A stretch of DNA of 64,000 nt. Source: Syntrophomonadaceae bacterium (GTDB taxonomy: Bacteria; Bacillota; Dethiobacteria; DTU022). The notes under the pieces were generated by a model that was given only the letters and a program-made list of their open reading frames with translations, ran no database searches and was not told the origin of the DNA. Where the stretch lies: the NCBI GenBank assembly GCA_007121075.1, contig SKMK01000033.1, positions 312-64,311 of the forward strand, read 5' to 3'. Below, one piece after another: positions 8,249 through 55,293 of this stretch (the first letter of the stretch is position 1; every line of letters starts with the position of its first letter). Both the position numbers and the translations under genes were made by a program.

Positions 8249-9070
8249 ATGAATAATAAAAAAACAATTATCGAAAAAGGCAAAACCGTACAATCCCTGG
8301 AAAGGGCGCTGACAATAGTAGAACACATGGCCGAAGCCGGGCGCCCTGTTACCATCAGCGAGCTATCGGAAGGTGTAAATTTAAAAATCAGCACTGTTCA
8401 CCGGCTTTTAAATACCCTTTTAAACCGGGGCTATGTAGAACAAGATCCGGAAACCAACAAGTACCAGCTGGGCCTCAAACTGCTGGAAGTAGCCAATAAC
8501 ATTTTTTCTTATTCCGATATAAGGACCATCGCCAGGCCATTTTTGACAGAGCTGGTAGACCGGTGCAACGAAACCGCCAACCTTGCCGTTTTGGATGAAA
8601 CCGAAATAGTTTACATCGATCAAATCGAATCGCACAACTATATCATCGTTAAAATGTTTGCCCAGGTTGGCAACAGAGGGCCCGTTCACTGTACCGCTTC
8701 AGGGAAAATTCTGCTGGCCTACCTTTCCGAAAAAGAACTTGATCTTGTCCTGCCCAGGATAGAGTTAAAAAAATACACCAGCCAAACTATTAGCGACCCG
8801 GAAGAGCTAAAAAAAGACCTGACCCGCTCCAGGAAACAGGGATACGCCTTAGATTGGGGCGAAATGGAGGAAAACGTACGCTGCATAGCCGCACCAATCT
8901 TCAATTACGAAAACAAAGCCGTGGCCAGTATCGGGGTTTCCGGTCCCGATAACCGGATCACGGCAGATTATATCAACCAAAAGCTGGCCGGCATCATAAA
9001 AGATGTCGCCGCCAAAGCTTCAATAAAGATGGGCTACAGCAAAGGAAAAGACCTGTTATCCATATCGTAA
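8249..9070 (+). CDS. IclR family transcriptional regulator
   Basis: 273 aa; N-terminal HTH (QSLERALTIVEHMAEAGRPVTISELSEGVNLKISTVHRLLNTL) and C-terminal IclR effector domain. Confidence 0.85.
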   Translation: MNNKKTIIEKGKTVQSLERALTIVEHMAEAGRPVTISELSEGVNLKISTVHRLLNTLLNRGYVEQDPETNKYQLGLKLLEVANNIFSYSDIRTIARPFLTELVDRCNETANLAVLDETEIVYIDQIESHNYIIVKMFAQVGNRGPVHCTASGKILLAYLSEKELDLVLPRIELKKYTSQTISDPEELKKDLTRSRKQGYALDWGEMEENVRCIAAPIFNYENKAVASIGVSGPDNRITADYINQKLAGIIKDVAAKASIKMGYSKGKDLLSIS

Positions 9071-9077
9071 CAGGCAG

Positions 9078-10661
9078 TTAAAAATCTAAGATTTGTTCCG
9101 CCTCTTCCCTGTCTAAATCCATAACATGTTTGATGCCGCTTATTTCTGCGGCTTCTTTTGTCAGGGCGGCAATGTCATCCCTGGATATATATTCCAGGGT
9201 AAACTTGCGGTTGCCACACATCAACTGTTTCAAGCCCTGGGCCAGACGTTCATAGTAGGTGTACAGTCCCAGTGCACCGGGGGGCAATTCCTCAAACAGG
9301 TCGTTGCCAAGCTCATGTTTCAACTCGGAAGCAGTCACAAATATTTCTTCAACATCGGAACCAAAGCGCTCCACGTATACCGGGAGCTTGTTTTCCGCTA
9401 TCCTCGAACCGATTGTTTTCCCGACCATTGCCGCTGCCAGCGGCGCCCTGGCCATGCCGATCAGCTTAACATGGGGAGCGGCAATAGCCAGTCCTTTGAA
9501 AATCTGGTCTTCAAAAGCAAAACCTCCCCCTAAAGCAATATCGGGCATATAATGGTCCTTGGCTTTTAACTTCTCACAATAGCTGTAAAGAAGAGAATGC
9601 AGCTCTACCGAGGGAACACCCCATTCGTTCATCATCCGCCAGGGGCTCATGCCTGTCCCCCCGCCTGCCCCGTCCACGGTAACAAGATCTATGTCGGCCA
9701 GGGAAGAAAACCGCAAGGCCCTGGCCAGATCGGCCGGCCTGTAAGCTCCGGTCTTTAAAAATACATTCCTTGCCCCCGCTTCTCTCAGGCTTTTCACCCT
9801 CTGCAGAAATGATTCCTCGTCAACGATGCCCAGCAAAGAATGGCGTTCAAATTCTTTAAAGCTTCCGCGCCGGAAGGCCTCGGCCACATGGGGATCCTCC
9901 GGATCGGGCAAAACAACATATCCTCTCTTTTTCAACATCAGGGCTTTATCCAAACTTTTGATTTTAACTTCGCCGCCAATATCTTTAGCGCCCTGGCCCC
10001 ACTTCAGTTCCACAGCATCAACATCCAGCTGTTCAAGAGCATATTCAAGGGTTCCCAGTCGGCTGTCTTCTACATTAGCCTGGACCACTATGGCACCGCA
10101 GCCGTCCACCTGCCATTTTTTGAATAATTCCACCCGGCGTTTCAAGTCAGACGTTTTGACTACGCGGCCGTTCTCTAGTACCGCATCTTCATCCATGCCG
10201 CTGACATTTTCACCAACAGTCAGGATAATCCCACAAAGCGCTGCACCGGCTGCCAAACTTTCCCAGTTATTCCTGGCTACATCGGTAGAACCGATACCGG
10301 ATATAACAACAGGCAGTTTCAACCTGATATCTTTATTCTTACCAATTGGCCGTCCCAATTCCACATTAGGAAAGATTGCCTTTTCAGTATCTGCCTCTAT
10401 ACCTTTAGCTCCCATCATGGTGCCCATGATCGAAAAATGAGAATAATCGACGGGGTATTTTTTCTCAGAAGCGGTGGTAGTGATACCAAAAGGCTGGGGG
10501 TAAAGGGCTTCATGGCCGCGGTAGGCCGATTTTCCGATTTCACACATTCCCACACAGCCATCAACGCAGGTCACACACATTCCGCTGTAAGGGTTGATCG
10601 AGCCTTCCGTCCGGTTCTTGGTTAAGGTTGCGGCTGAAGCATTGGGTTTGTAAATACTCAT
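9078..10661 (-). CDS. Stand-alone glutamate-synthase domain-2-like FMN oxidoreductase (Glu_synthase family, N-terminal Cys cluster)
   Basis: 527 aa; N-terminal CVTCVDGCVGMC cluster, TIM-barrel FMN-binding GltB domain-2 signature (GGTGMSPW, GG...DIALGGGF). Confidence 0.75.
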   Translation of the reverse strand: MSIYKPNASAATLTKNRTEGSINPYSGMCVTCVDGCVGMCEIGKSAYRGHEALYPQPFGITTTASEKKYPVDYSHFSIMGTMMGAKGIEADTEKAIFPNVELGRPIGKNKDIRLKLPVVISGIGSTDVARNNWESLAAGAALCGIILTVGENVSGMDEDAVLENGRVVKTSDLKRRVELFKKWQVDGCGAIVVQANVEDSRLGTLEYALEQLDVDAVELKWGQGAKDIGGEVKIKSLDKALMLKKRGYVVLPDPEDPHVAEAFRRGSFKEFERHSLLGIVDEESFLQRVKSLREAGARNVFLKTGAYRPADLARALRFSSLADIDLVTVDGAGGGTGMSPWRMMNEWGVPSVELHSLLYSYCEKLKAKDHYMPDIALGGGFAFEDQIFKGLAIAAPHVKLIGMARAPLAAAMVGKTIGSRIAENKLPVYVERFGSDVEEIFVTASELKHELGNDLFEELPPGALGLYTYYERLAQGLKQLMCGNRKFTLEYISRDDIAALTKEAAEISGIKHVMDLDREEAEQILDF

Positions 10662-10830
10662 GTCAAATTCTCCCCTTTATAATTAAACTAATATATTATA
10701 ATTGACCTGCTTACTGATTGGTCTTCTTTTTTAACTCACAGGCTGCGCAGGGATCCATATAGCACAAAGTATGATCGTTGTTTTCCAGGCAGGGCGGTGA
10801 AAGGTTCAGACAAGCACTGCATAATGTGCT

Positions 10831-11391
10831 TTATCCACTGGGACCCTGGCAGCGAACCTGGCAAACCGGACAAATATACATGCATGCCCCACAGAGGCGG
10901 CATTGTTCGGACTTCCTGTCAAAAGCGGTGCTGATTCGCCGATTGACGCCCCTGTCAACAAAACCGATCGCCTTTGCCTGCATTTGCTCCTCACACATTC
11001 TGACACACAGACCGCACAATATGCACTCTTCGTTTTTTGGTGAAAAGCGGACTCCGGTAACACCATATTTTGAAGCCAGATCCTGAATTGTTTTCGAGGA
11101 TGGGCACGTCGCCAGGTAAAGCTCGATGATCATTTTTCTGGTCTGCATTACCCGCACGGTATTGGTCCTTACATTCAGCTTTTCCCTGGCTGGGTAGGTG
11201 CAAGAACTAACCAGGCGAGATTTGCCCGGCTCTCCTATTTCGACCAAGCATAACCGGCATGCCCCGTAGGGGCTTAAAGCTTCATCATAGCAAAGGGTTG
11301 GAATATTAGCCCCGTAAAACCTGGCTACATCGAGCAGGGTAGCACCCGGTTCCACATTAATCTTGAGGCCGTCCATGGTCAGATTAATCAA
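10831..11391 (-). CDS. 2Fe-2S / 4Fe-4S ferredoxin-like electron-transfer subunit (NuoG/HydA N-terminal type, no catalytic domain)
   Basis: 186 aa; N-terminal 2Fe-2S fold (TLCYDEALSPYGACRLC), followed by CGLCVRMC and CRLCGACMYICPVC 4Fe-4S motifs. Confidence 0.75.
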   Translation of the reverse strand: MINLTMDGLKINVEPGATLLDVARFYGANIPTLCYDEALSPYGACRLCLVEIGEPGKSRLVSSCTYPAREKLNVRTNTVRVMQTRKMIIELYLATCPSSKTIQDLASKYGVTGVRFSPKNEECILCGLCVRMCEEQMQAKAIGFVDRGVNRRISTAFDRKSEQCRLCGACMYICPVCQVRCQGPSG

Positions 11392-11413
11392 TTTCTCACC
11401 TCATCTAGCGGTC

Positions 11414-13276
11414 CTACTGCTTTAAGATTGCCTCATTTCGGCATGTAGAAAAGCAAATACCACACTTATCACACTGATCTTTATCAATATAATGGGGTTT
11501 TTTCTGCTCTCCGGTTATAGCATCCGACGGGCAATTCTTTTTACATAAACCGCATCCGTTACAGTAGGATTCAATGATCTCAAAAGTAATCAGCGCCCGG
11601 CAAACACCGGCCGGACATTTATTTTGTAAAATATGAACCCTGTATTCATCTTCAAAATATTTTATGGTCGACAGCACCGGGTTGGGAGCAGTTTGACCAA
11701 GCCCGCACAAGGTTGAATCTTTAACTACTTCTGCCAGTTCTTTTAACAGGTCCAGCTGGTCAAGTGAACCGCGTCCACAGGATATGTTCTGCACCAGCTC
11801 GAGCAGTCGGCTTATTCCTTCCCGACAGGTAAAACAACACCCGCAGGATTCATCAGCCAAAAATTTTAAAAAATACCCGGCCAGATCAACCATACAGGTA
11901 TCTTCATCCATGACGATCATGCCCCCTGAACCCATCATGGAACCCACTTCTGTTAAGCTCTCGAAATCGGTGGGCAGATCCAGGTATGAAGCAGGCAGAC
12001 AACCACCAGAGGGACCTCCGGTCTGGACAGCTTTAAAGGCTTTTCCCTCTTTGATACCGCCCCCAATTTCAAAGATGATCTCTCTCAGGGTCATGCCCAG
12101 AGGCACCTCAACCAGGCCGGTATTGTTGACTTTGCCGACCAGCGAAAATATTTTTGTCCCACTTGATGCCTCGGTTCCAGTTGCGCGGTAGTTTTCCGCT
12201 CCCTGTTTGATAATATGAGGGACATTGGCCAGGGTTTCTACGTTATTGACCACGGTCGGCCTGTCCAGGTAGCCTTGCTGTACCAGGCGGGGAGGCTTTT
12301 GGACCGGTTCCCCAACTCTTCCGTCAACCGAAGCAATAAGGGCGGAAGTTTCACCACATACAAAAGCGCCCGCCCCGATGCTTAGGTAGATTTGAATCCC
12401 GAAACCACTGCCCAGGATATCGTCGCCTACCAAACCCAACTCTTTCGCCCGGTTAATCGCAGTCTTGATCTTCTCCACGGCGGTGGGATACTCAGATCGA
12501 ATATATACTACGCCTTCCCGGGCATCGGTGGCATACGCACCAATAATTAATCCTTCCAGAACAGCATGAGGATTGCCTTCCAGAAGGCTCCGATCCATAA
12601 ATGCGCCCGGATCTCCTTCGTCGGCATTGCAAATTATAAACTTCCTGCCGGATGCCTTGAAGCATTCTTCCCACTTAAGGCCGGCATCAAATCCGGCTCC
12701 ACCCCGGCCTCTTAAACGGGCCTCTTTGACTTCTTGCACAACTTCACCCGGGCTCATTTCCGTGACCGCTTTCACCAGGGCCTCGTAACCGCCCTGGGCT
12801 ATATAATCTTCTATTTTGGTGGGATCTGTTTTCCAATTGCCACTCAGCAAATTCCTGACCTGCTTTTTGTAAAATGGAAGGCCCCGGGCATAGGCATATT
12901 TTTCGCCACTGGACGGATCCCTGTAAATAAGCCTGTCAATAATCCGGCCCGCCTGGACAGTTTCTTCTACAATTTCCGGCATATCATCAGGAATGACCCT
13001 GTGGTATAATATCTCCTCCGGGTAAACAATTACCAGGGGCCCGCTTTCACACAGGCCCAGGCAACCTGTAAACCTGGCTCCTACCGTTTCACTCAAATCT
13101 TTTTCTTTAAGGCACCGATCCAGGCTTCCCAGAATCGCCTTTGAATTTCTGGCGGTACATCCGGTATCGCCGCAAATCGCAATAAAACGATTATTGTCCC
13201 GGTACTGCTTTTGATAATTCCGCTGGATATAAAAAAACTCTTCTGCGCTTTTTATTTTTGGCGCTTCCAAATCCAT
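11414..13276 (-). CDS. NuoF/HoxF/HndC-like NADH-binding FMN flavoprotein with extra ferredoxin domains
   Basis: 620 aa; 51-kDa subunit motifs (GRGGAGFDAGLKWE, ICNADEGDPGAFMDR), C-terminal CxxCxxCxxxCP ferredoxin motifs, N-terminal thioredoxin-like 2Fe-2S segment. Confidence 0.85.
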   Translation of the reverse strand: MDLEAPKIKSAEEFFYIQRNYQKQYRDNNRFIAICGDTGCTARNSKAILGSLDRCLKEKDLSETVGARFTGCLGLCESGPLVIVYPEEILYHRVIPDDMPEIVEETVQAGRIIDRLIYRDPSSGEKYAYARGLPFYKKQVRNLLSGNWKTDPTKIEDYIAQGGYEALVKAVTEMSPGEVVQEVKEARLRGRGGAGFDAGLKWEECFKASGRKFIICNADEGDPGAFMDRSLLEGNPHAVLEGLIIGAYATDAREGVVYIRSEYPTAVEKIKTAINRAKELGLVGDDILGSGFGIQIYLSIGAGAFVCGETSALIASVDGRVGEPVQKPPRLVQQGYLDRPTVVNNVETLANVPHIIKQGAENYRATGTEASSGTKIFSLVGKVNNTGLVEVPLGMTLREIIFEIGGGIKEGKAFKAVQTGGPSGGCLPASYLDLPTDFESLTEVGSMMGSGGMIVMDEDTCMVDLAGYFLKFLADESCGCCFTCREGISRLLELVQNISCGRGSLDQLDLLKELAEVVKDSTLCGLGQTAPNPVLSTIKYFEDEYRVHILQNKCPAGVCRALITFEIIESYCNGCGLCKKNCPSDAITGEQKKPHYIDKDQCDKCGICFSTCRNEAILKQ

Positions 13277-13302
13277 ATTGCCGGACTCCTCTTAATATCA
13301 TA

Positions 13303-13803
13303 TTACTTACTTAAACCGGAAGACACTGTTTGTTCAGTCTTGGTCGGGTTATCGCTAAAAAGTCTACGCACTTTCAAGGGGGTCATCTGACCGTAATATC
13401 GACCATCAACAATTATCAGGGGCGCCAGGGCGCAGGCGCCAACACAATTAACGCATTTAAGGGAATACTCACCGTCTTCAGTCGTGGAACTTATATCAAC
13501 CCCAAGGGTTCGGGAAATTTCTTCAGTAATTTTTTCACTTCCCCGCACGTGGCAGGCCGTTCCGGCGCAGGTGACAACCTCGCGACGGCCCTGCGGGGCC
13601 AATCTAAAGTTCTTGTAAAAAGTAGCAACACTATAAAAATCTATTAGAGGAACTTTCAGCTCCCGGGCAGCCTTTTCCAAGGCTTCTTCGGGAAGGTAGC
13701 CATAATAACCCTGGATAGCTTGAAGCACTGTAATAACCGAAACCCCATTAGGGCCACAGGGAACCTCGAGCCCGAGCACAGTATTTTTTTTCATGGCAGT
13801 CAC
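13303..13803 (-). CDS. NuoE-like (24-kDa) 2Fe-2S thioredoxin-like ferredoxin subunit
   Basis: 166 aa; CAGTACHVRGS...CVNCVGACALAP 2Fe-2S motif typical of NuoE/HndA. Confidence 0.8.
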   Translation of the reverse strand: MTAMKKNTVLGLEVPCGPNGVSVITVLQAIQGYYGYLPEEALEKAARELKVPLIDFYSVATFYKNFRLAPQGRREVVTCAGTACHVRGSEKITEEISRTLGVDISSTTEDGEYSLKCVNCVGACALAPLIIVDGRYYGQMTPLKVRRLFSDNPTKTEQTVSSGLSK

Positions 13804-14076
13804 TAAATCACCCCGTTATATTTCCACATTATGAAATTACTTTCCATTTTAGTGTATTGAATATTATAAGGTCTTTCCGGACTGCTGTCAAGCAAATTGA
13901 TCCAAAACGATTAGATCAAATTTTTATGCCGCCTTGTTTCCGGGCAGATCACAGGCACCACAATTTCTGAACCGTATTCGATCATCAATTAACTACCTAT
14001 TAAACCGGTAGTGAGGATTTGAGTTGGAAATGATACAATAAACAGGCAGGGTGGCACCTGCAAAGGAGGACCATTT

Positions 14077-21991: not shown

Positions 21992-23473
21992 CTATCCGGA
22001 TTCAGTTTCCCAATGGATCCCGTCTCCTTTTTCTACGGTAACCAGGGCTGGAAATTCCTCCCTGACCCTGGCATCGATTTCCGGGGGAACAATCGGCTCA
22101 GAAGGCTCCTGGAGGATCTGCGCAGCAAGTTCTTCCGCCCGCTTCCAGCTGTCCTTGCTCCCGGCATCGATCCAGCGCTGGTAAGGCTGTCGATCGCTGG
22201 CCCGCGGGGCATAACTTTCAGTGCGCATGTACCTGACCGTATGCTCCTCACTGAGATAATTGCCACCGGGTCCAACCCTGGCAATAATATCATAGGCCAG
22301 CGTATCCTGGTTAATTTCAATCCCTCGTAAAGTGCGCAGGCAGCTTCCAACAATATCGTTGTCGATCACATACTGAGCATAAGAAACTGTAAGGGCCCCG
22401 TCGAGCATGCCAAACGCTTCATGAATAAAGTTCCCCCCGGCCAGGGCAGCCAACATGGCCGTAGTTGCTCCTTCATGGGCGGCCTGGGCGTCGGGAAGCT
22501 TGGAGTCGGTGGTGCCTACTGTCAAATAACAGGGCAGGCGGTAATAATGGGCCATCTGGGTAATGGCTGCATTCATCAAACCCGATTCTATACTGCCCAT
22601 CAAGAAAGACATGGTCCGCATATCCATGGTTACCGGTACAGCACTGTACAGGACGGGCGTACCCGGGTTAACCAACTGAGTAAGCATCACTCCCATCAGC
22701 GCTTCGGCATTTTGCTGAACGAGGGTGCCGGCCAGGGTAATCGGCGCCGTCGCTCCGGCGCAAGGAGCAGTCGAAGTAGCCAGGGGAAGGCCGTAGCGAG
22801 CTACTTCCATGATATATTCCGCATGCTCGGGGCTTATTTTTAACGGGCTGTTTATCGATGAAATAAAACCGACAAAGGGCCTGCGCTGTAAATTTTCCAG
22901 CCCCCCGGCGATAATTGAGGCAATTCTAATTGCATCTTCAAGCCCCTGCTTGCTGAAAATACCGCTCATTACCGGTTTTCCGGTATTCAGAAAAGCCTGG
23001 TACTTGGTATTGATACCCACAGTCTCGATATTGATATCATGCGGATAAAGGGGATTGATAAAAAAGTTCAGGTATTCCAGCCTGTCGGCAAGCCGGGCCA
23101 GTTCTGCAACATCGTGGATGGCCCCGGGTCGCTTGTTTCGTTCAAGATCCAAAACATAAAGGGCCAGTCCTCCGGTGCCAAAGTTAACTTTCTTGCCGCC
23201 GATGGTAATATCTTTTCCTTCCTGGCGGCCGTAAAAGACAAACTCGGCCGGAGCTTGTTTGATACAACGGGATACAAGATCCCTGGTCACATAGATCCGG
23301 TGGCGGTCATAATCAACCCTGGCTCCGTTTTTTTCAAACAACTCGAGGGTTGGCTGGTAATTAATTTCAAATCCTACTTTTTCCAGCACCTTGATCGATG
23401 TTTCATGGATCTGGCTTATCTCCTTTTCCGAAAGGACATTATAGCCCCCGCCTTCATAGGTCAATTTTTCCAT
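21992..23473 (-). CDS. MttB-superfamily (trimethylamine methyltransferase-like) corrinoid-dependent methyltransferase, non-pyrrolysine type, paralog 1
   Basis: 493 aa uninterrupted ORF (no amber); TIM-barrel MttB-family similarity along whole length; downstream of Opu transporter and CBS gene on same strand. Confidence 0.75.
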   Translation of the reverse strand: MEKLTYEGGGYNVLSEKEISQIHETSIKVLEKVGFEINYQPTLELFEKNGARVDYDRHRIYVTRDLVSRCIKQAPAEFVFYGRQEGKDITIGGKKVNFGTGGLALYVLDLERNKRPGAIHDVAELARLADRLEYLNFFINPLYPHDINIETVGINTKYQAFLNTGKPVMSGIFSKQGLEDAIRIASIIAGGLENLQRRPFVGFISSINSPLKISPEHAEYIMEVARYGLPLATSTAPCAGATAPITLAGTLVQQNAEALMGVMLTQLVNPGTPVLYSAVPVTMDMRTMSFLMGSIESGLMNAAITQMAHYYRLPCYLTVGTTDSKLPDAQAAHEGATTAMLAALAGGNFIHEAFGMLDGALTVSYAQYVIDNDIVGSCLRTLRGIEINQDTLAYDIIARVGPGGNYLSEEHTVRYMRTESYAPRASDRQPYQRWIDAGSKDSWKRAEELAAQILQEPSEPIVPPEIDARVREEFPALVTVEKGDGIHWETESG

Positions 23474-23526
23474 AGTTCCTGCCCCCCGACAAGCTATATT
23501 TAATAACTATTTGCTTTAATACCCTT

Positions 23527-24024
23527 TTAAGTCTGGTTAATTGTCTCCCATTTTTGTACCATGGCCCTGATTAAATCCGCCCTGGTAATAATCCCTGTTA
23601 GTTTATTGTTTTCGTCGGTTACCGGGATACGATTAATGCCGTTTTCATACATTAAACGGCTTACATCATATACGGGAGCATCTTCTTTAACCGAAATCAC
23701 TTCTGTCGTCATTAAGGTTTCCACGGTTGTGGAAGCAACCAGTTCTATCACTTCCACACCCCGGTGAGTAATATCAACATGGAGGACTTCTTTTCCCTTG
23801 GTAAATACCTGGTGAGGATCGCGCAGGGGCTGGCCGATTATTTGCTGGGTGTAACGAAGGATATCGGTCTCAGATACAACCCCGATTAAGTTATCCTCAT
23901 CATCAGTAACTGGCATTCCGCTAAAACTATTCTCATCCAAAATCTCAGCCGCTCTCTTCAGTGAAGTGTCCGTTTTGACGCTGATCACCGGAGAAGTCAT
24001 AATTTCTTTTGCCAATATCGCCAT
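23527..24024 (-). CDS. CBS-domain (tandem CBS pairs) protein
   Basis: Start at MAILAKEIMTSPV with GGAGGG RBS; four CBS-like repeats. Confidence 0.7.
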   Translation of the reverse strand: MAILAKEIMTSPVISVKTDTSLKRAAEILDENSFSGMPVTDDEDNLIGVVSETDILRYTQQIIGQPLRDPHQVFTKGKEVLHVDITHRGVEVIELVASTTVETLMTTEVISVKEDAPVYDVSRLMYENGINRIPVTDENNKLTGIITRADLIRAMVQKWETINQT

Positions 24025-24114
24025 ACTAATCCCTCCATAAATGCTTGTCAATAGATATTTCAAGCCACCAAAACCTAGCAACCACAAACATTCTTTAAGC
24101 ATTAATACAACAAA

Positions 24115-24144
24115 GGGGCAAGCAAGATTATCCCTGCTTGCCCC
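24115..24144 (-). terminator. Rho-independent terminator-like hairpin after opuAC-type gene
   Basis: Perfect 10-bp GC-rich stem GGGGCAAGCA/TGCTTGCCCC with 10-nt loop, followed on minus strand by TTTGTTGTATT. Confidence 0.5.
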
Positions 24145-24211
24145 CGCATTAACTGGCTGTTTTTCCCTTATTATATTAACTGCTTCATCATTTTACAGTC
24201 TTTTTTTCTGC

Positions 24212-25135
24212 TTACTCAATAAATCCTTCTTCACGCAACCACTCTTCTGCAACTTCTCTCGGAAGTTCTTCTTCCAGGTCAACTTTCATGTTCAGTGAAG
24301 ACATAACTTCCGGGGTCAACACGGCAGCGATGGGATTAAGAATGTCCGGGATTTCAGGAAATTCATCCAGGATATCCTGGCGAACTACCGGAGAACAGTT
24401 GTAAACCGGATGGAATTCCTGGTCGTCTACCAGGTTGACCAGGTTAAACTCAGCAATACGGGCATCTGTAGCAAAGCCCATTGCAGTGGCATGCATCCCA
24501 TCATTCAATGCGCCGTAGGTAATCCCGAGGTCCATAACTTCGTAACTTTCAAATTCAAAACCGTAATGCACCTGCAGCTGCTCCAGGCCGTCATCGCGAG
24601 CTTCGTATTCGTGGTCGGTAGCAAAAGACCATTCGCCCGGTTCGGGAGCTTCTACGCCTTCGTTAATGGCTTCAGCCAGGTCGCTGATTGTTTCGATGCC
24701 CATTTCTTCAGCATCTTCCTGGCGCATCATCACGGTGTAGGTGTTGTTAAACGGTGTCTTCTCCAGCCAGACCAGGTCATTTTCTGTCTGGTCCCATTCT
24801 GCTATGGTGGCATATGCTTCTTCCGGGTCGGTAATTACATCGTGCCCCATGAACTCAACCAGGGCAGTACCGGTGTATTCCCAGTACATCCCGATGTCCC
24901 CTCTTTCCAGGGCTTCACGGGCCACAACAGTACCGCCGAGGTTGGTTTCATCTTCCACCGGGATACCGGCATCTTCCAGGGCAACCAGGGCAATCTGGCC
25001 CAGGATCAACTGCTCGGTAAACTCTTTCGATCCTACTGTCACCGTAGGCTCATCAGGTTCACAGCCCATTACAAACAACGAACCTACCAGGAAAATCAAG
25101 ACTAAAGATAGTGTTAACAATCTTTTAATACTCAT
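24212..25135 (-). CDS. Quaternary-amine (glycine betaine/choline/carnitine type) ABC transporter substrate-binding lipoprotein (OpuAC family)
   Basis: 307 aa; signal peptide + lipobox (LFVMGCEP); OpuAC-type binding fold; in operon with OpuA/OpuC-type permeases and ATPase. Confidence 0.75.
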   Translation of the reverse strand: MSIKRLLTLSLVLIFLVGSLFVMGCEPDEPTVTVGSKEFTEQLILGQIALVALEDAGIPVEDETNLGGTVVAREALERGDIGMYWEYTGTALVEFMGHDVITDPEEAYATIAEWDQTENDLVWLEKTPFNNTYTVMMRQEDAEEMGIETISDLAEAINEGVEAPEPGEWSFATDHEYEARDDGLEQLQVHYGFEFESYEVMDLGITYGALNDGMHATAMGFATDARIAEFNLVNLVDDQEFHPVYNCSPVVRQDILDEFPEIPDILNPIAAVLTPEVMSSLNMKVDLEEELPREVAEEWLREEGFIE

Positions 25136-25280
25136 AAATATAATCTACCCCCTTCTACTCATTTGGTTTGGGAAAACAGCCAAACTCTAACTCTATTTCA
25201 CTTTAACTCTTAACCTTTATTATAACATCCAATCACAAATTTTTGCTAATATATATCAAAGTCTCTCCAAGCTTATATGA

Positions 25281-26003
25281 TTAAGACCAGCGGACAACCC
25301 GTTCTTCGGCTTTGCCAATCAAATAATCCAATAAAATGGCCGTAATAGCAGCAATAACCGCTCCATTCACGATAATCATATCCCGGTGAACTGAAAGCCC
25401 GGTTACGATCAGGTCCCCGAGGCCGCCGCCACCAATAAAGGTAGCCAGGGTGGCAGCACCGACATTAATCACGATAGCAGTCCTGAGGCCGGCCACAATA
25501 ATCGGAAAAGCGATCGGCAGTTCAATCCTGGTTAAAATGCGTAAGGGACGCATACCCATTCCCCTGGCCGCTTCAATAATACTGTGTTCAACACCGTCTA
25601 TACCGGCAAAAGTGTTCCTCAGAATGGGCAAAATCGAGTAGAGAAACAGGGCAAATACCGCCACCCTGAATCCCAGGCCTAATATGGTATAGAAAAGAGC
25701 CAGCACGGCCAGGCTGGGCACAGTCTGGCCGATGTTGACTATGGTTTCCATTACCCGGCCGATCCGGTACAGGCTGGGGCGGGACAGCATAATCCCCCCG
25801 GCCACACCGACGATCGTGGCCCCGGTCATCGAAACCAGGAGCAGGCCCATATGCTCCCTGATCACTCTAAAGACTCGCTCATAGGTGAGCATCCGGGCCA
25901 CGATGGAATCAGGAGGGTTATTGACAGAATAGATAACAATTGCTGCTGCAATTCCGATCATGATCAGCGGAATTCCGATCCAAACCCACAAAGTCCGTAG
26001 CAT
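25281..26003 (-). CDS. Quaternary-amine ABC transporter permease (OpuCD/OpuBD-like)
   Basis: 240 aa, 6 TM, ABC permease EAA-like motif (EAARGMGMRPLRILTRIELP). Confidence 0.8.
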   Translation of the reverse strand: MLRTLWVWIGIPLIMIGIAAAIVIYSVNNPPDSIVARMLTYERVFRVIREHMGLLLVSMTGATIVGVAGGIMLSRPSLYRIGRVMETIVNIGQTVPSLAVLALFYTILGLGFRVAVFALFLYSILPILRNTFAGIDGVEHSIIEAARGMGMRPLRILTRIELPIAFPIIVAGLRTAIVINVGAATLATFIGGGGLGDLIVTGLSVHRDMIIVNGAVIAAITAILLDYLIGKAEERVVRWS

Positions 26004-26005
26004 GA

Positions 26006-27124
26006 TTAGCTATCCTCCCTGACCACGTTGAGCAGGTCGCCCAGGGTGATTGTTCCTTGATACTTCTCATCTTCGTTAACTACGGCCACATAACCTTCAC
26101 CAATCTCAAGCATAACCGAAAGGGCATCGTTCAAAGTGGCATCGTCGGTTACCGTATCGGATACTTCCTGGAAGTAATCGCCTGCCACTTCACCTGTTTT
26201 TCGTTTTAGATCATTTACCCCGATAACTCCTTTCAGCTTGTTATCGCGATCGACAACTATAACCGTCCTGATATCACTTTCATCAAGCCGTTTTTTAACC
26301 TCTTCTTCCTTTGTGTCTTCCTTGAGTGCCGGTGCCCTGTCGACTTCTTCCAAAATTTCGCTGACCCGGATCAGGTGCAACCGCTTAATGGAGCGGTTCC
26401 TTCCTACCAGGTTTGATACAAATTCATCGGCCGGCGCGCTGAGCAAATCGCTCGGAGTGGCGTGCTGGACCAGTTCACCTTCTCTCATCACAGCGATGGT
26501 ATCGCTCATTTTAATCGCTTCATCAATATCGTGGGTAACGAAAACGATGGTTTTATCCACCCTTTCCTGGATCCTTAAAAACTCGTTCTGCAAGCGAGCC
26601 CTGGTGATCGGGTCAACCGCGCCGAAGGGCTCGTCCATGAGCATGATCGGCGGATCGGAAACCATCGCCCGGGCCACGCCGACCCTTTGCCTCTGGCCGC
26701 CGCTCAGGGCCGAAGGATAGCGATTTTTAAAAATTTCCGGGTCGAGTCCTACCAGGCTCATCACGTTATCTACTTTTTCTTTTACCTGGTCTTTGGGCCA
26801 CTGTTTTTCATTGGGGACGGTAGCGATATTTTCATAAATTGTCATGTGGGGAAACAACCCGATTTCCTGGATCACATAGCCAATATCCAGGCGCAGTTTT
26901 ATCGGGTCCATTTGAAGGGCGTCTTCACCCCGGATATATATCTTCCCCCCGGTTGGTTCATAAAGGCGGTTAATCATTTTCATGGTTGTAGTTTTTCCGC
27001 ACCCTGAAGGGCCAACCAGGACACAAACATCCCCCTCATTTACTTCCAGGTTCAGGTCCTTGACCGCGGGAATATTATGCCCCTTGAAAACTTTAGTCAA
27101 TCCTTCCAATTTTATCATGTTCAA
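26006..27124 (-). CDS. Glycine betaine/proline-type ABC transporter ATP-binding protein with C-terminal CBS domains (OpuAA/OpuCA-like)
   Basis: 372 aa; Walker A GPSGCGKTT, signature LSGGQRQRVGVARA, Walker B IMLMDEPFGAVD, tandem CBS at C-terminus. Confidence 0.85.
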   Translation of the reverse strand: MNMIKLEGLTKVFKGHNIPAVKDLNLEVNEGDVCVLVGPSGCGKTTTMKMINRLYEPTGGKIYIRGEDALQMDPIKLRLDIGYVIQEIGLFPHMTIYENIATVPNEKQWPKDQVKEKVDNVMSLVGLDPEIFKNRYPSALSGGQRQRVGVARAMVSDPPIMLMDEPFGAVDPITRARLQNEFLRIQERVDKTIVFVTHDIDEAIKMSDTIAVMREGELVQHATPSDLLSAPADEFVSNLVGRNRSIKRLHLIRVSEILEEVDRAPALKEDTKEEEVKKRLDESDIRTVIVVDRDNKLKGVIGVNDLKRKTGEVAGDYFQEVSDTVTDDATLNDALSVMLEIGEGYVAVVNEDEKYQGTITLGDLLNVVREDS

Positions 27125-27858
27125 TTCCCCTCCCTTGTGCTGCCTTCTACGGAAAACCGCTTCTCTCCATAATAGAGGAGGTAATCGAAGGCAATTGCGA
27201 TTATGGATACCCCGATTGCACCGGCAATAATCATCGGCTGGTGTCCCCTGGAAATACCGGAAAAGATCAGCTCACCCAGTCCGCCTGCTCCTACATAAGC
27301 GGCAATAGCGGCAATACCGATCATCATAACCGCTGCAGTCCGAACCCCGGCCATGATTACAGGCCTGGCCAGAGGGATTTTAATTTTGAAGAGAATACGC
27401 CGCTCCGTCATTCCCATTCCCTTGGCCGCTTCAACAATCGCCGGATCTAGCTCCCTGATCCCGGTATATGTATTTCTAACAACCGGCAGTAAGCTGTAAA
27501 GAACCAGGGCTACCACCCCGGTAGTAAAACCGATCCCAAACAATGGAACCATAAAGGCAAGCATGGCCATACTGGGAATAACCATCAAAACCTGGCATAT
27601 CCCCAGAACAGTTTGAGCAAGGCTTTCATAGTAGCTGATAATTATACCGATCGTTACAGATATGGTTACTGCAATTATCAAGGTCAATATAACCAGCCAG
27701 AGGTGTTCAAGCATCAATTCCAAAATCAAGTCACTTCGACGAGAAATGTAGTCAATCGTGTGGGCAATAATACCCCGGTCTCCTGCCTGGGCTATCGACT
27801 CAATGCCATTTCCCGCCGCCCTGAATGCATCAAACGCCATCCCTAATAATTGGTCCAT
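27121..27858 (-). CDS. Quaternary-amine ABC transporter permease (OpuCB/OpuBB-like)
   Basis: 245 aa; EAAKGMGMTERRILFKIKIP motif; overlaps ATPase start by 4 nt. Confidence 0.8.
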   Translation of the reverse strand: MDQLLGMAFDAFRAAGNGIESIAQAGDRGIIAHTIDYISRRSDLILELMLEHLWLVILTLIIAVTISVTIGIIISYYESLAQTVLGICQVLMVIPSMAMLAFMVPLFGIGFTTGVVALVLYSLLPVVRNTYTGIRELDPAIVEAAKGMGMTERRILFKIKIPLARPVIMAGVRTAAVMMIGIAAIAAYVGAGGLGELIFSGISRGHQPMIIAGAIGVSIIAIAFDYLLYYGEKRFSVEGSTREGN

Positions 27859-28234
27859 GAATCAGCAATCACCCTCTCTGTATTTTATATTTCAATTCAT
27901 TTAAGTAACCGGGTAGCCCCTGTTGTTTAAGTACTTACTATGTTGATTTAAATAGACCCGGGATAATCTTCTGGGAAGAACCCCAGTTAATTAAAATTGC
28001 GAAGTTTTATAAACTGTAAAATTCTATGTGGGTATTCTAGTTTCCTGGTATTTTATAAAATTATTTCACATATAAACCACGGTTACAACTAATACATTTA
28101 GTAGTAATTAGCTTTAAAACGTCATTATCCGGGCCTATTTATAGTTTTCGCCACATGAATACCTGTAAAGCGGATCCTTGTGGCGAAAACCTTATAAACA
28201 ATGAATATTTACTCTATACAGCCGGAATTCAACT

Positions 28235-29482
28235 TTATTTAACAATCTGGATTATACCAACCAGTCCATGGCCCAGGCCGTGACCCTGCTGAAGGTTCAT
28301 TTCCAGGCTGCGAATGGCATATCCGAGCTGGGCTTCGATCAAGTCGGCCCTGATATCACCGTAAAGCCCTTTGCTACCTTCCAGGCTCTGCCGCATAACC
28401 CGGTACGCTTTCTCCAGGGGTTTTACATCGGTTTGCGGGGGATAGGGCAGCAGTTCCTCGTCACTGTCATAATTCTCCATCAGGACCATGGTATAATCGA
28501 CCAGGTCATTCCAGCTGTCGGCCAGCCTCTGGAGGGATTCATTCTGCCAGTCAAACCCTTCCCTGGGTTTGTAGTTTACTTTGAGATCCGGAAAATAGGT
28601 CCTCAAACCGCGCTCAAAGAGGGATGAAACCATCAGGCGCAGAGGTTGAGAATTGCCGTTATAGGTGCCGGTCTCGATGTGCCTGCCCACAAACAGGGAG
28701 CGGTCAAAAAATCGCAATACTTTCAGTTCCACTCCAGCCTTTCGGGCCGCACTTTCCAGGATCCTAAAAACCTCAGCCGGTGTCATAAGCCGCAGTGGAA
28801 ATGAAGACAGATCTACATTATCCCTGTCTTCCTCCTCATAGAGGTAATTAATTACGTAGTCGATATAGGAAATTTCTTCCGGATCATGAGTCCACAGGTT
28901 TTGCCACTCATATGAATAGCGGCCCAGAAAGTCAGCCAGGATCAGGCTTCCGTTGTTACCGTGCTTACCCATATCTACAAACAACTTTTCCAGCTCTTCA
29001 TTAGTGCAGTGAGAAAGAGTCCCGTAGGAAGTGAAATAAAGATCGTACGGCTCTTCGCCTTCGTCCAGGGGCAGGCCGTTTGAAAAATCTCCCTTACAGA
29101 AATTAACATGGTCATAATCGCCAAACAGGGTTTCAGCTTCTTTAAGCAATTCAATGCTTAAATCAATGCCCTTATACTGGTCCATCATGTCGTCTTTGAT
29201 TAAGCGGGTATCAAACTGGGACAACCTGGCTCCCCTGGCCATGTTGCTGAGCAGTTCATATCCGTCGCCTGTTCCACAGCCCAGGTCATAAAAACGCAAC
29301 CCTTCGCCAATTTTATTGACTTTCATTTTTACAATATCTTCTATATAGGGCCTGAGATAGTATTTAGTAATAAAATCTTCAAACTGGGTCCGGACATGGT
29401 CGTACTTGCCGCGCAAACTCCTTACGTGTTCGCTGTACCTCCCATGTCGTATCGCTTCTTGATAAGCCTTATCGGCATCCAT
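28235..29482 (-). CDS. Class I SAM-dependent methyltransferase with large C-terminal extension, translationally linked to corrinoid protein
   Basis: Start placed at Met24 (AGGAGGG RBS; 1 nt after corrinoid-protein stop); motif I FYDLGCGTGDG, post-I D (GIDLS), motif II YDLYFTSYGTL; ~230 aa C-terminal region without recognisable motifs. Confidence 0.7.
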   Translation of the reverse strand: MDADKAYQEAIRHGRYSEHVRSLRGKYDHVRTQFEDFITKYYLRPYIEDIVKMKVNKIGEGLRFYDLGCGTGDGYELLSNMARGARLSQFDTRLIKDDMMDQYKGIDLSIELLKEAETLFGDYDHVNFCKGDFSNGLPLDEGEEPYDLYFTSYGTLSHCTNEELEKLFVDMGKHGNNGSLILADFLGRYSYEWQNLWTHDPEEISYIDYVINYLYEEEDRDNVDLSSFPLRLMTPAEVFRILESAARKAGVELKVLRFFDRSLFVGRHIETGTYNGNSQPLRLMVSSLFERGLRTYFPDLKVNYKPREGFDWQNESLQRLADSWNDLVDYTMVLMENYDSDEELLPYPPQTDVKPLEKAYRVMRQSLEGSKGLYGDIRADLIEAQLGYAIRSLEMNLQQGHGLGHGLVGIIQIVK

Positions 29483-29483
29483 G

Positions 29484-30185
29484 CTAACTTTTCCCTCCTG
29501 ATTGTAATAATTTTTCTGCCACCCGGATGGCGGCAAAAGCATCTTTTCCATACCCGTCGGCGCCTATCTCGGCCGCAAAATCATCGGAAGTCGGTGCTCC
29601 ACCAATTATAACCTTAACTTTATCGCGAAGTCCTTTCTTCTCAAGTTCCTTGACAACATTTTCCATGTTAACCATGGTGGTGTTGAGCAGGGCCGAAAGC
29701 CCAACCAGATCCGCTTTTTCTTGCTCGGCCGCTTCTACGATCCGGGCGGCAGGTACATCAATGCCCAAATCTACTACATTAAAACCTGCTCCTTTAAGCA
29801 TAATTGACACCAGGTTTTTACCGATATCATGCAGGTCTTTTTCTACTGTCGCCATGATTACTTTTCCTTTGCCTTCACTTTCACCTGCACTGGCCAGGTG
29901 CGGTTCCATGACTTTCATGCCTGCTTCAACAGCTTCTGCAGCGGTTAGCATATCCGGGATAAAGTATTCCCCTGTTTCATATTTTTCCCCGACCTGCTCC
30001 ATGCCTTTGCTCAGACCTTCAAGCAGAATCGTATTTGTATCGATCCCGTTATCCAGTGCTTCCTGGACCAGTTCCGCCACTCCCGCCTTGCCGGCATAAT
30101 CTTCTTCAATACCTTCGTCATCCTTATTGCGGCGCCCCTGCAGGACATTTTCCACTATGCGTTTAATCAGTTCTTCCTTCAACAT
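29484..30185 (-). CDS. Cobalamin-binding corrinoid protein (MtgC/MttC-type)
   Basis: 233 aa; B12-binding_2 helical cap then Rossmann B12 domain with DxHxxG (DLHDIGKNLV), SxL and GG motifs; strong RBS TAAGGAGGAAGA. Confidence 0.85.
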   Translation of the reverse strand: MLKEELIKRIVENVLQGRRNKDDEGIEEDYAGKAGVAELVQEALDNGIDTNTILLEGLSKGMEQVGEKYETGEYFIPDMLTAAEAVEAGMKVMEPHLASAGESEGKGKVIMATVEKDLHDIGKNLVSIMLKGAGFNVVDLGIDVPAARIVEAAEQEKADLVGLSALLNTTMVNMENVVKELEKKGLRDKVKVIIGGAPTSDDFAAEIGADGYGKDAFAAIRVAEKLLQSGGKS

Positions 30186-30279
30186 TCTTCCTCCTTAACT
30201 TCGCAGTCATTTATTATTAAATCAATATAGCCTACCATGCGTGTTCACACGATCCGTTAAAATACTTTTTGTAAAAAAT

Positions 30280-30313
30280 CTTTGTTATACAACCCTGTGG
30301 TTGTATAACAAAG
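30280..30313 (-). promoter_or_regulatory. Perfect 15-bp inverted repeat (CTTTGTTATACAACC-ctgt-GGTTGTATAACAAAG) between mttB paralog 2 and corrinoid gene
   Basis: Read directly from sequence; followed on minus strand by GATTTTTTAC; could be internal attenuator/processing hairpin or operator. Confidence 0.45.
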
Positions 30314-30327
30314 GATACCTGCCACTT

Positions 30328-31863
30328 TTATTTTGCATACGGATTTAAACGGGGCAGCAATCCGGGTATCTGCTCAAAAATACGCTTGCAAATATCTTCT
30401 GAGAGGTGTTCCGGTTGCTGTTTTTCTAGTTCTTTTAACTTGTCATGGGCTGCCAGCAAAGTCTGATCTTCTTCTTCCAAATCACCTTCAAAGGGGAAAC
30501 CGGGAAAGATTTCGCCGCGGCGCAGCATCTTACGGGCAAAACGGGCATAGAGCCTGTAAGGACTGTTCATTACTTCTTCGATCATACTCTTTATCCGTCC
30601 GGCCTCTCCTGCTTCCACACCACTTTCCCGGTAAAGTGACTTAACCATAGCAATCTGATGGTTTTCAAGAACAGCCTGCTCCGGAGAAAAAGTTTGTGTT
30701 TTATCCAACAAACCAAAGGCATAATGAATTAAATCAGGTGCTGAAGAGGGAACTGCTGTGTAAGTAAACATTTTTTCCACGGCCGCCTGAACACCCGGCA
30801 CCTTTGCATCGCCAACACCGGCGGTTGAATAACAAGGCACTTTGTAATACCGGGCCATCTGGGCACAGATCATGTTATAATGACAAAATTCAGGCACACC
30901 ATACATGTCGTGCAGATCATCCATGCGCGCTCGTACCGGCACTGCACCATAAATAACCGGTGCTCCCGGATTGGTCAGCTGGTTGATTACTATTCCTGCT
31001 AAAGTTTCCGCATTTACCTGTGCCGCCATACCAAATTCTTCTATTGGGGCCGTTGATCCACCCTGAGGTGAAGTGGAAATAATAACTGGTAAACCTAACT
31101 TAGAAATGGCCATCAGTTTGTCTGCAGTTTCGTCCACTATTTGTAAAGGACTCTTGATCACACTGGTAATAAATGTCACTATCGGATTTTTGATCAGTTG
31201 TTCGCGCCCGCCTGTTATTATTTCAGCCATGGCAACTACGTTTTCAAGTTGTTCGGGATCGGCTACCCCGCTAACTATCGGCTTGGTAGTATAGTTTAAG
31301 GCGGCAAAAAAAACATTGACATCCTTATTTTCGCCACTGATATCGGAATCCTGTACATTAACGTTGCGAAGGAAAAAATCTAAGTTCTCAAGTTGTTCTG
31401 CAAGATGCGCTGAGCGACAAAGATATTCCAGGCTGCCCCGGTTTTTTTTCATTACCGGAAAGACCTGTTCTCGTCCATCCTGCTTGGAAACAAAAGTCTC
31501 CGGCTCAACTTCCAACCAGTAGTTGGTTTCCGAACCGGTGCCAAAATAAACTCTTGAACCCTCAGCATCCATAACAACCTGATTTTCCGGTTTTCTTGCT
31601 CCAAGAGTTACCTTTGTCGGAGCACTATCCAGCGCCTTCTGAACCACTTTTTCCGGAATACTTACCCACCAGGCATCGTGCTCTCCCTCACGTGTTTTCT
31701 TGGCAGTGGCACCTGCTTTTTCCAACAATGCAACTGCTTCTTCGTTGTAACAGAGAATACCCGGCGTTTCTAAAAGATCTAAAGATGTTTGGTGAACCAG
31801 TTCAACCTGTTCTTGACTTAAACGTTCATACGGCTTAGATACTACTACTCCTCTTTCACTCAA
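30328..31863 (-). CDS. MttB-superfamily corrinoid-dependent methyltransferase, non-pyrrolysine type, paralog 2
   Basis: 511 aa uninterrupted ORF; MttB family similarity (compare paralog 1: ...YFGTG...SPL.I... conserved blocks); first gene of operon with corrinoid protein. Confidence 0.75.
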   Translation of the reverse strand: MSERGVVVSKPYERLSQEQVELVHQTSLDLLETPGILCYNEEAVALLEKAGATAKKTREGEHDAWWVSIPEKVVQKALDSAPTKVTLGARKPENQVVMDAEGSRVYFGTGSETNYWLEVEPETFVSKQDGREQVFPVMKKNRGSLEYLCRSAHLAEQLENLDFFLRNVNVQDSDISGENKDVNVFFAALNYTTKPIVSGVADPEQLENVVAMAEIITGGREQLIKNPIVTFITSVIKSPLQIVDETADKLMAISKLGLPVIISTSPQGGSTAPIEEFGMAAQVNAETLAGIVINQLTNPGAPVIYGAVPVRARMDDLHDMYGVPEFCHYNMICAQMARYYKVPCYSTAGVGDAKVPGVQAAVEKMFTYTAVPSSAPDLIHYAFGLLDKTQTFSPEQAVLENHQIAMVKSLYRESGVEAGEAGRIKSMIEEVMNSPYRLYARFARKMLRRGEIFPGFPFEGDLEEEDQTLLAAHDKLKELEKQQPEHLSEDICKRIFEQIPGLLPRLNPYAK

Positions 31864-55259: not shown

Positions 55260-55293
55260 TATATTCCATACTCCTTTCAGTTATAATTAAAAA

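Follow-up and report, generated by a model that had tools for sequence, protein, structure and literature searches.

Why should electron-wire subunits of the kind found in hydrogenases and formate dehydrogenases lie next to a stand-alone synthase domain of glutamate synthase (GltS), and do they make up a single enzyme? The question is raised by four genes on the minus strand, at positions 9078 to 13803, of a 64,000-nucleotide stretch of DNA (the window) from a Syntrophomonadaceae bacterium (assembly GCA_007121075.1, contig SKMK01000033.1, positions 312 to 64,311). An initial annotation, made from the letters alone, had described there a NuoE-like, a NuoF-like and a short HoxU-like Fe-S protein, followed by a protein resembling domain 2 of GltB. 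The list of open reading frames (ORFs) and the domain calls, made with Pfam and NCBIfam, place all four genes at those coordinates (Table 1). On balance, the analysis reported here favours a single operon that would encode a soluble, hydrogenase-independent oxidoreductase of the type-2 BfuABC kind (HydABC-like). We regard it as a coherent Bfu-type complex, widely distributed and uncharacterised as far as could be found, whose catalytic subunit would be GltS-like; we infer, from sequence features and genome context, the formation of a complex, its coupling to ferredoxin, the bifurcation of electrons and the nature of its substrate.

The conservation of gene order provides the first line of evidence. 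A scan of one genome per species revealed at least 593 loci encoding a relative of the GltB-like protein, which has more than 8000 homologues in the databases. The best 80 loci were fetched, covering at least 15 bacterial and archaeal phyla, and their gene order was read by tblastn with the window proteins, the denominators being the loci with enough upstream DNA. This synteny check, which had been set beforehand, showed that the four-gene order is kept on one strand nearly everywhere. The HoxU-like gene lies directly upstream of the GltB-like gene in 70 of 72 loci (71 if L023, with a larger gap, is counted); NuoF precedes it in 56 of 57 loci and NuoE in 52 of 53, and in no case does the strand differ. 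The unit is present in Bacillota, Zixibacteria, KSB1, Planctomycetota, Desulfobacterota, Acidobacteriota, Bacteroidota/Ignavibacteria, Verrucomicrobiota, Thermoplasmata and Methanobacteriota, among others. Its most conserved parts are the HoxU-like and GltB-like proteins, with 60–70% identity across phyla, the latter keeping about 70% from Bacillota to Acidobacteriota, Bacteroidota, KSB1, Altiarchaeota and Thermoplasmata. When the neighbouring ORFs of the 80 loci were clustered, no family recurred immediately downstream on the same strand, save glutamate dehydrogenase in a few loci. The claim that the unit works independently of a hydrogenase held up as well: a catalytic hydrogenase or formate dehydrogenase subunit (H-cluster domain, NiFe large subunit or molybdopterin subunit) was found neither in the four-gene cluster, nor in 10 sampled large ORFs of the window, nor among the recurrent neighbour clusters. 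The lone exception to the synteny (L022) is a paralogue of 67% identity that adjoins an IclR gene. Paralogues of this kind (60–67% identity), located beside IclR genes and lacking NuoEF/HoxU genes of their own, were seen in L004 (4129–5712) and L022 (10001–11581), and in Dethiobacter a GltB-like paralogue lies immediately upstream of the main operon.

The second line of evidence comes from the subunits themselves. The Bfu family is defined by the domain sets of BfuB, BfuC and BfuA, and BfuB in particular by a Nuo51 FMN (flavin mononucleotide) domain, an SLBB domain, the NuoF Fe-S region and a 4Fe-4S ferredoxin-type domain (Schut et al., 2022). All of these occur in the window NuoF (PF01512, PF10531, PF10589 and Fer4 families at residues 565–617), whose architecture runs from an N-terminal 2Fe-2S_thioredx-like domain through Complex1_51K (the Nuo51 FMN domain), SLBB and NADH_4Fe-4S to a C-terminal 2x[4Fe-4S] domain. 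The protein matches over its full length HydB of the bifurcating NiFe-Bfu hydrogenase of Acetomicrobium mobile, which has a solved structure (PDB 7T2R_B); further matches are HydB of bifurcating FeFe hydrogenases, NfnB and WorB (685 bits). Alignment to 7T2R_B at the His/Cys site named B2, which holds Zn in other structures and whose His is missing from non-bifurcating homologues (Schut et al., 2022), pairs C461 with C438, S499 with C476, H548 with H525, C554 with C531 and C559 with C536; the position of S499 is Thr in most BfuB. Because the B2/Zn-site positions and the domain set are kept, the window NuoF qualifies by sequence as a bona fide BfuB. The idea of a specialised clade of NuoF proteins found no support, since phmmer scores to the cluster NuoFs of other phyla (600–775 bits) are no higher than the score to HydB (738 bits). 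Directly upstream of NuoF lies the gene for the NuoE-type [2Fe-2S] protein (PF01257), with partial NCBIfam matches to HoxE and NuoE models; it probably starts at the ATG at 13794, in line with the 163-residue orthologue in the close relative L081 (GCA_003554615.1). Outside Bacillota, the NuoE-like protein carries a Cys-rich C-terminal extension of about 120 residues (L020, 5237–6085, and many other loci), and its gene is often closely preceded by that of a small Cys-rich protein of 90–177 residues, which falls into the NuoE cluster (L020, 4727–5182); the window has neither.

The NuoF of the relatives comes in two forms. Besides the window, about 17 loci have the short form of about 620 residues. 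The long form, of about 1050 residues, occurs in about 40 loci, where a GltD-type module (Fer4_20 + Pyr_redox_2) stands in place of the C-terminal ferredoxin-type 2x[4Fe-4S] domain (for example L020, 6123–9299). Fusions between NuoF and GltD are also known from hybrid hydrogenases (Cell 2024 paper). The four window genes include no GltD-type small subunit (Fer4_20 plus an FAD/NADPH domain). The initial annotation had regarded the arrangement as distinct from the Nfn and Stn complexes; this stands for the window, but the family taken together overlaps with Nfn-Bfu in its domains, since most relatives carry a GltD/NfnL-like NADPH-FAD domain fused to NuoF.

The HoxU-like protein combines a Fer2_4 domain with a 4Fe-4S dicluster domain (Fer4_7), the 2Fe-2S and 4Fe-4S ferredoxin-type domains that are required of BfuA, and contains motifs for one [2Fe-2S] and two [4Fe-4S] clusters. 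It has no motif for a His-ligated cluster and is hence graded as a type-2-like BfuA. It had been said to resemble only the N-terminal part of hydrogenase and formate dehydrogenase large subunits, and indeed its NCBIfam matches (FeFe hydrogenase A6, HoxU and NuoG N-termini) are partial and all far below cut-off. The Cys columns are conserved in 92–100% of 63 homologues, and the best solved relative, found with the intact orthologue of L081 as query, is WorA (9MQX_A, 141 bits).

In the window, the reading frame of this subunit ends after 186 codons at an in-frame TAA (10833–10831), beyond which the same frame remains open for 39 more codons (10830–10714). The tail that they encode, STLCSACLNLSPPCLENNDHTLCYMDPCAACELKKKTNQ, is homologous to the C-terminus of HoxU-like proteins of at least 225 residues in 63 of 63 complete homologues, and its six Cys, together with C177 and C181, are conserved in 94–100% of them. 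At the stop, the window reads GGA TAA whereas L081 (98%) and L001 (86%) read GAA GAA, and the only other matching metagenome contig is free of the stop. Because the relatives and the matching contig lack it, and the tail is kept in all complete homologues, the stop represents either a recent nonsense mutation or a sequence error. Recoding was considered unlikely, the codon being TAA and not TGA or TAG, with the relatives simply having GAA. One consequence is that the gap of about 170 bp formerly drawn in front of the GltB-like gene consists mostly of the conserved coding tail of the BfuA-like gene, and the true spacer is only about 49 bp. In L081, where the gene order is as in the window, the 226-residue HoxU-like gene ends 49 bp before the GltB-like gene.

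This stop underlies the alternative that survives best, according to which the system is inactive in the window genome, as a recent pseudogene or through an assembly error, with loss of the BfuA tail that leads to the GltB-like subunit. The loss of a tail that all complete homologues possess, at codons where both relatives and the other contig are intact, favours this alternative, as does the fact that the C-terminus of WorA is a docking element, and the enzyme may be crippled in this genome by the removal of the tail. On the other side, the DNA of the tail is undecayed and, apart from the stop, none of the four genes is damaged, their identity to those of L081 being 98%. An error in sequencing, or a change of very recent date, is therefore equally possible, and the truncated BfuA still has its three canonical clusters. 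Inactivity in the window is thus a possibility to be taken seriously, although the balance is against it.

The subunit that distinguishes the cluster is the 527-residue GltB-like protein. Its only Pfam domain is Glu_synthase (PF01645), matched with 53 bits against a cut-off of 20.4 and best over residues 279–399; in the relatives P0122 and P0216, the alignment spans positions 57–309 of the model. Local Smith-Waterman alignment with GltB of E. coli pairs ELKWGQGAKDIGGE with IKVAQGAKPGEGGQ, GGGTGMSP with DGGTGASP and GGGF with DGGL. The GltS motifs K220xxQ223GAK226..GG, G334GTGMSP340 and G379GG381 can thus be set against residues 931–943, residues 1028–1034 and the DGG motif of the E. coli protein, and the positions of QGAK, GGTGxSP and GGG are invariant in 21 homologues. 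In bona fide GltB, the QGAK loop, GGTGxSP and (D/G)GG are motifs of the active site and of the FMN site. The region equivalent to the GltS [3Fe-4S] motif C-x5-C-x4-C is devoid of Cys in the alignment to E. coli GltB. The N-terminal Cys cluster noticed in the initial annotation proved to be real: C29-x2-C32-x3-C36-x3-C40 (Cys4) is invariant in 21 of 21 aligned homologues, recurs in most of the divergent relatives inspected by eye and probably binds a [4Fe-4S] cluster. An AlphaFold2 model of moderate quality (pTM 0.74, mean pLDDT 68), built from a shallow alignment in which all sequences are at least 69% identical, has a confident TIM-barrel core. To judge from its sequence, the protein is a distant member of PF01645, and it is presumed to be the catalytic subunit that handles the third substrate. 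P0216, a protein of 800 residues and 38% identity, contains the same barrel fused to an F420-binding FrhB_FdhB module, which suggests that one reductase module can be exchanged for another as the electron input to the barrel.

What this third substrate might be is indicated by the company that the unit keeps. In about 13 of the 80 loci, which belong to several phyla, the fetched flanks include a glutamate dehydrogenase gene (ELFV_dehydrog, about 430 residues), before the unit in some and after it in others (L002, L006, L007, L008, L015, L027, L034, L036, L044, L049, L055 and L076). It is mostly immediately adjacent and on the same strand; in L055 it lies on the opposite strand and in L002 two genes away. 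In L002, glutamate dehydrogenase and a 2-oxoacid:ferredoxin oxidoreductase are encoded downstream of the unit, and in an Aerophobetes locus (L026, 840–16427) the unit is found amid genes for 2-oxoacid:ferredoxin oxidoreductase, a second set of which is read from subunit sizes, NfnAB-like proteins and succinyl-CoA synthetase (sucCD). The NtrC-type regulators that precede the unit in 43 loci, and the FrhB fusion of P0216 with its resemblance to the predicted F420-dependent glutamate synthases, are counted in favour of the same link. Because of the GltS motifs, the GltD fusions and these neighbours, the couple formed by 2-oxoglutarate (as 2-iminoglutarate) plus NH3 and L-glutamate is favoured as substrate, albeit tentatively. 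Neither a glutaminase (glutamine amidotransferase) domain nor a GXGXG domain was found in the window genes or in the recurrent neighbour clusters of the 80 loci, and therefore the reaction would depend on NH3 and not on glutamine; a glutamine-dependent glutamate synthase is unlikely. The most ambitious form of the proposal, which we consider improbable but worth stating, is a widespread and hitherto undescribed Bfu class of anaerobic bacteria and archaea in which a minimal GltS subunit acts on glutamate or on 2-oxoglutarate plus NH3, that is, a bifurcating or confurcating glutamate synthase or dehydrogenase.

Several points weigh against reading the cluster as a Bfu oxidoreductase with a GltS-like catalytic subunit. 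Neither biochemical nor expression data could be found for any member. The BfuA-like subunit of the window is cut before its conserved Cys-rich tail, and the NuoF core, being no closer to the cluster NuoFs of other phyla than to hydrogenase HydB, is generic and not specialised. Since GltD replaces the ferredoxin-type C-terminus of NuoF in most relatives, coupling to ferredoxin may not be universal. The 527-residue protein has no family match in NCBIfam, including the curated gltB equivalog models; a search of solved structures, with the single sequence and with a 21-sequence profile, returned no GltS or other informative match; and when the family profile was compared with E. coli GltB by hhalign, only 30 columns around GGTG could be aligned, the QGAK loop becoming visible in the Smith-Waterman alignment. 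The top Foldseek matches of the model are generic FMN barrels (lactate/glycolate oxidase, IPP isomerase II and IMPDH) with low TM-scores, which do not discriminate between substrates. The glutaminase and GXGXG domains of a glutamate synthase are missing nearby. Finally, the 2-oxoglutarate/glutamate couple lies well above NAD+/NADH in potential, and the third substrates of known Bfu enzymes have intermediate potentials. A glutamate substrate is therefore no neat fit to the canonical Bfu scheme, and two possibilities follow: bifurcation from NADH in the manner of Bcd-Etf, or an enzyme that does not bifurcate.

The second possibility is the core of the next alternative, a non-bifurcating reductase that depends on NADH (and also on NADPH in the GltD-fused relatives), in which NuoEF/HoxU would serve as an electron wire to a GltB-like FMN site working as in glutamate synthase. 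A couple of such high potential needs no bifurcation, and GltD takes the place of the ferredoxin-type C-terminus of NuoF in most relatives. The diversity of input modules agrees with it: P0216 joins the same barrel to another one, and GltS enzymes that use NADPH, NADH or ferredoxin as reductant are known, with F420-linked versions predicted from genome context (PMC3448663). What speaks against it is the window NuoF, which retains all the features of bifurcating BfuB given by Schut et al. (2022): a 2Fe-2S domain at the N-terminus, a 2x[4Fe-4S] domain at the C-terminus and the His/Cys B2 site, with the very His that is absent from non-bifurcating homologues according to the same study. A simple reductase is accordingly rather unlikely.

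More doubtful still is a change of substrate, in which some other organic acid or imine of small size, such as a 2-hydroxy or 2-oxo acid, would be the third substrate and the enzyme would act as a Bfu-linked 2-hydroxyacid/2-oxoacid oxidoreductase. The Foldseek matches are headed by FMN-dependent alpha-hydroxyacid oxidases and dehydrogenases, P0216 weakly matches PF01070 (FMN_dh), and the regulator in Bacillota belongs to the IclR family, in which the nearest NCBIfam models, all below cut-off, respond to small organic acids. However, the structural matches (TMq 0.39, rmsd 7–12 Å, from a model with pLDDT 68) have low TM-scores typical of any FMN barrel, the window protein matches PF01645 above threshold and PF01070 not at all, the GltS-type QGAK loop is invariant, and both the fusion to GltD and the nearby glutamate dehydrogenase genes point towards glutamate metabolism. 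That the Nuo-like genes, as classic diaphorase parts, serve a hydrogenase or formate dehydrogenase encoded elsewhere beside an unrelated GltB-like neighbour, an idea that could draw on a NuoF as similar to HydB as to the cluster NuoFs of other phyla and on a study of Dehalobacteriia in which an unassigned NuoE/NuoF/NuoG-like cluster was guessed to be a hydrogenase, is extremely improbable in the face of the near-universal synteny across phyla, which contradicts such service, of the lack of any hydrogenase or formate dehydrogenase family in the sampled ORFs and recurrent neighbour clusters, and of the high conservation of the HoxU-like and GltB-like proteins within the unit.

In the favoured reading of the cluster as a type-2 BfuABC oxidoreductase, NuoF/BfuB would bind NAD(H) at its FMN and probably ferredoxin at its C-terminal 2x[4Fe-4S] domain, with NuoE/BfuC contributing the partner [2Fe-2S] cluster. 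The short HoxU-like BfuA would link this core to the separate catalytic subunit, its Cys-rich tail probably acting as dock and electron-transfer element towards the GltB-like protein, by analogy with the C-terminus of WorA, which docks WorS. Electrons would enter or leave the GltB-like subunit through its N-terminal Cys4 cluster, and the FMN in the TIM barrel would be the site where the third substrate is reduced or oxidised. Expression would be driven by the consensus promoter upstream of nuoE, under the control of the neighbouring IclR regulator.

The transcriptional signals agree with a single operon. The window has one consensus promoter for the cluster, TTGACA-17-TATAAT upstream of nuoE, which agrees with the consensus at 12 of 12 positions, is kept in L081 and L001 and is likely to be the operon promoter; the true gap of about 49 bp before the last gene also supports a common transcript. 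The TATAAT box that had been proposed as a separate promoter for the GltB-like gene was discarded, since most of the gap is coding in the relatives, the promoter scan found no −35 partner for it, and the box is not kept in the 86% relative L001. The element TGGAAAGTAATTTCATAATGTGGAAA, which follows the −10 box and precedes the ribosome-binding site of nuoE, contains a palindrome with GAAA..TTTC half-sites and is a plausible candidate for an IclR-type operator, an assignment based on the general form of the boxes of this family. The convergent IclR gene that had been noted is indeed there, with 7 bp separating its stop codon from that of the GltB-like gene, and an IclR gene lies near the cluster in the Bacillota relatives L001, L003, L004, L005 and L081. 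IclR takes in Bacillota the place of sigma-54 regulators: in 43 loci, the unit has upstream of it a gene for an NtrC-type sigma-54 response regulator, which usually comes with a partner. A strict −24/−12 sigma-54 motif precedes the unit in 5 of 54 loci against 0.3 expected, an enrichment that covers few loci. A sigma-54 promoter is irrelevant for the window, its promoter being of the sigma-70 type.

Table 1. Coordinates of the four genes, their control elements and the adjoining regulator in the window
Feature	Position	Strand	Description
NuoE/HoxE-like [2Fe-2S] subunit, BfuC-type	13303..13803	−	166 aa; PF01257 2Fe-2S_thioredx, E 6e-42
NuoF-like NADH/FMN subunit, BfuB architecture	11414..13276	−	620 aa; Pfam domains; 738 bits to 7T2R_B
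HoxU/NuoG-N-terminus-like Fe-S subunit, short type-2 BfuA-like	10831..11391	−	186 aa; Fer2_4 + Fer4_7; ends at TAA
Cryptic in-frame continuation of the BfuA-like gene past the TAA	10711..10830	−	39 codons, STLCSACLNLSPPCLENNDHTLCYMDPCAACELKKKTNQ; stop at 10713–10711
True intergenic spacer, about 49 bp	10662..10710	−	Ribosome-binding site AAAGGGGAG before the ATG of the GltB-like gene
Stand-alone FMN TIM-barrel protein like the GltS synthase domain	9078..10661	−	527 aa; PF01645, 53 bits
Sigma-70-type promoter TTGACA-17-TATAAT	13863..13891	−	Upstream of the NuoE-like gene; 12/12 consensus
Element TGGAAAGTAATTTCATAATGTGGAAA, candidate IclR-type operator	13821..13846	−	Common to window, L081 and L001
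IclR-family transcriptional regulator	8249..9070	+	HTH_IclR + IclR_C; convergent with the GltB-like gene

Two other regions of the window, both on the minus strand, deserve mention. The region 21992–31863 contains two genes for MttB-family methyltransferases (21992–23473 and 30328–31863), a gene for a B12-binding corrinoid protein (29484–30185) and one for a methyltransferase-domain protein (28235–29551), while the ORFs at 24212–27858, judged by eye from their N-terminal sequences, may encode a substrate-binding protein and an ABC transporter; the whole looks like a locus for the demethylation of quaternary amines or methylamines. At 53508–56637, two adjoining genes encode proteins of 583 and 447 residues with right-handed beta-helix/NosD-like repeats.

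No description of the four-gene arrangement was found in the full-text literature on Bfu, NuoEF, GltB, GltD and predicted F420H2-dependent glutamate synthases (FGltS), a search that covered papers outside subscription. Glutamate synthase goes unmentioned in the founding Bfu paper, which has 17–18 BfuB clades without assignment, and its supplement contains nothing on glutamate or on the relevant taxa; about one third of the BfuB clades are without an assigned third substrate (PMC9304861). Bfu (HydABC-like) enzymes are a major route by which anaerobes balance NADH and ferredoxin, and the four-gene unit is a coherent candidate for one of the unassigned clades, which could widen the catalytic range of both the Bfu and the glutamate synthase families. 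If the proposal is true, nitrogen assimilation or amino-acid fermentation would be tied directly to the NADH, NADPH and ferredoxin pools, and if the substrate is glutamate or 2-oxoglutarate, the enzyme would supply a link to low-potential carriers that is missing from metabolic reconstructions of these uncultured lineages. Whatever the substrate, the unit is a small and well-defined target of four genes that can be expressed from the versions of cultured relatives, Dethiobacter or Ignavibacterium.

How, then, does the cluster compare with the systems that are already known? The closest parallel in the design of its electron-transfer part is WorABCSL, the bifurcating tungsten aldehyde oxidoreductase of the type-2 Bfu class (PDB 9MQX; PMC12318220), which likewise joins a BfuBC core to a short BfuA. 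This subunit, WorA, has about 250 residues, with neither the His-ligated cluster nor the large domain at the C-terminus, and docks the separate catalytic module through a C-terminal zinc finger and helix (PMC12318220). The catalytic module of the window is, by contrast, a GltS-type FMN barrel with Cys4 and not the tungstopterin WorSL pair, and the window-type BfuA tail has its six conserved Cys in another pattern. NfnABC and StnABC share the same BfuBC core and possess a GltD/NfnL-like NADPH-FAD domain, which most relatives of the cluster also have. In Nfn and Stn, however, this domain sits on BfuA and forms the third-substrate site, whereas in the relatives of the cluster it is attached to NuoF; it is absent from the window, where BfuA has Fe-S domains only, and a GltB-like FMN subunit is always added.

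On the side of glutamate metabolism, the bacterial NADPH-glutamate synthase GltBD shares with the cluster the PF01645 synthase domain with QGAK, GGTGxSP and GGG and, in the relatives, the GltD-type domain, and for an association with glutamate dehydrogenase the GltAB-GudB complex of B. subtilis offers a precedent. In contrast to GltBD, the GltB-like protein has no glutaminase domain, no GXGXG domain and no 3Fe-4S motif CX5CX4C, bears an N-terminal Cys4 instead and would receive its electrons via NuoEF/HoxU. The cluster shares the synthase domain with GltS and is without four other features of glutamine-dependent glutamate synthase (GOGAT). The FGltS I and II enzymes (PMC3448663), themselves a prediction only, offer the same principle of a stand-alone synthase-domain subunit combined with an alternative reductase module, which P0216 shows in fused form with FrhB, but their input is the F420-dependent FrhB and not NuoEF/Bfu. 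HydABC, Hnd and the HoxEFU-type diaphorases contribute homologous NuoE, NuoF and NuoG-N-terminus subunits, whereas neither the four-gene cluster, nor the sampled ORFs of the window, nor the conserved unit of the relatives includes an H-cluster domain or a NiFe subunit. In conclusion, judged by its sequence, the cluster falls within the definition of the Bfu family and outside those of the hydrogenase, formate dehydrogenase and Nfn/Stn types.

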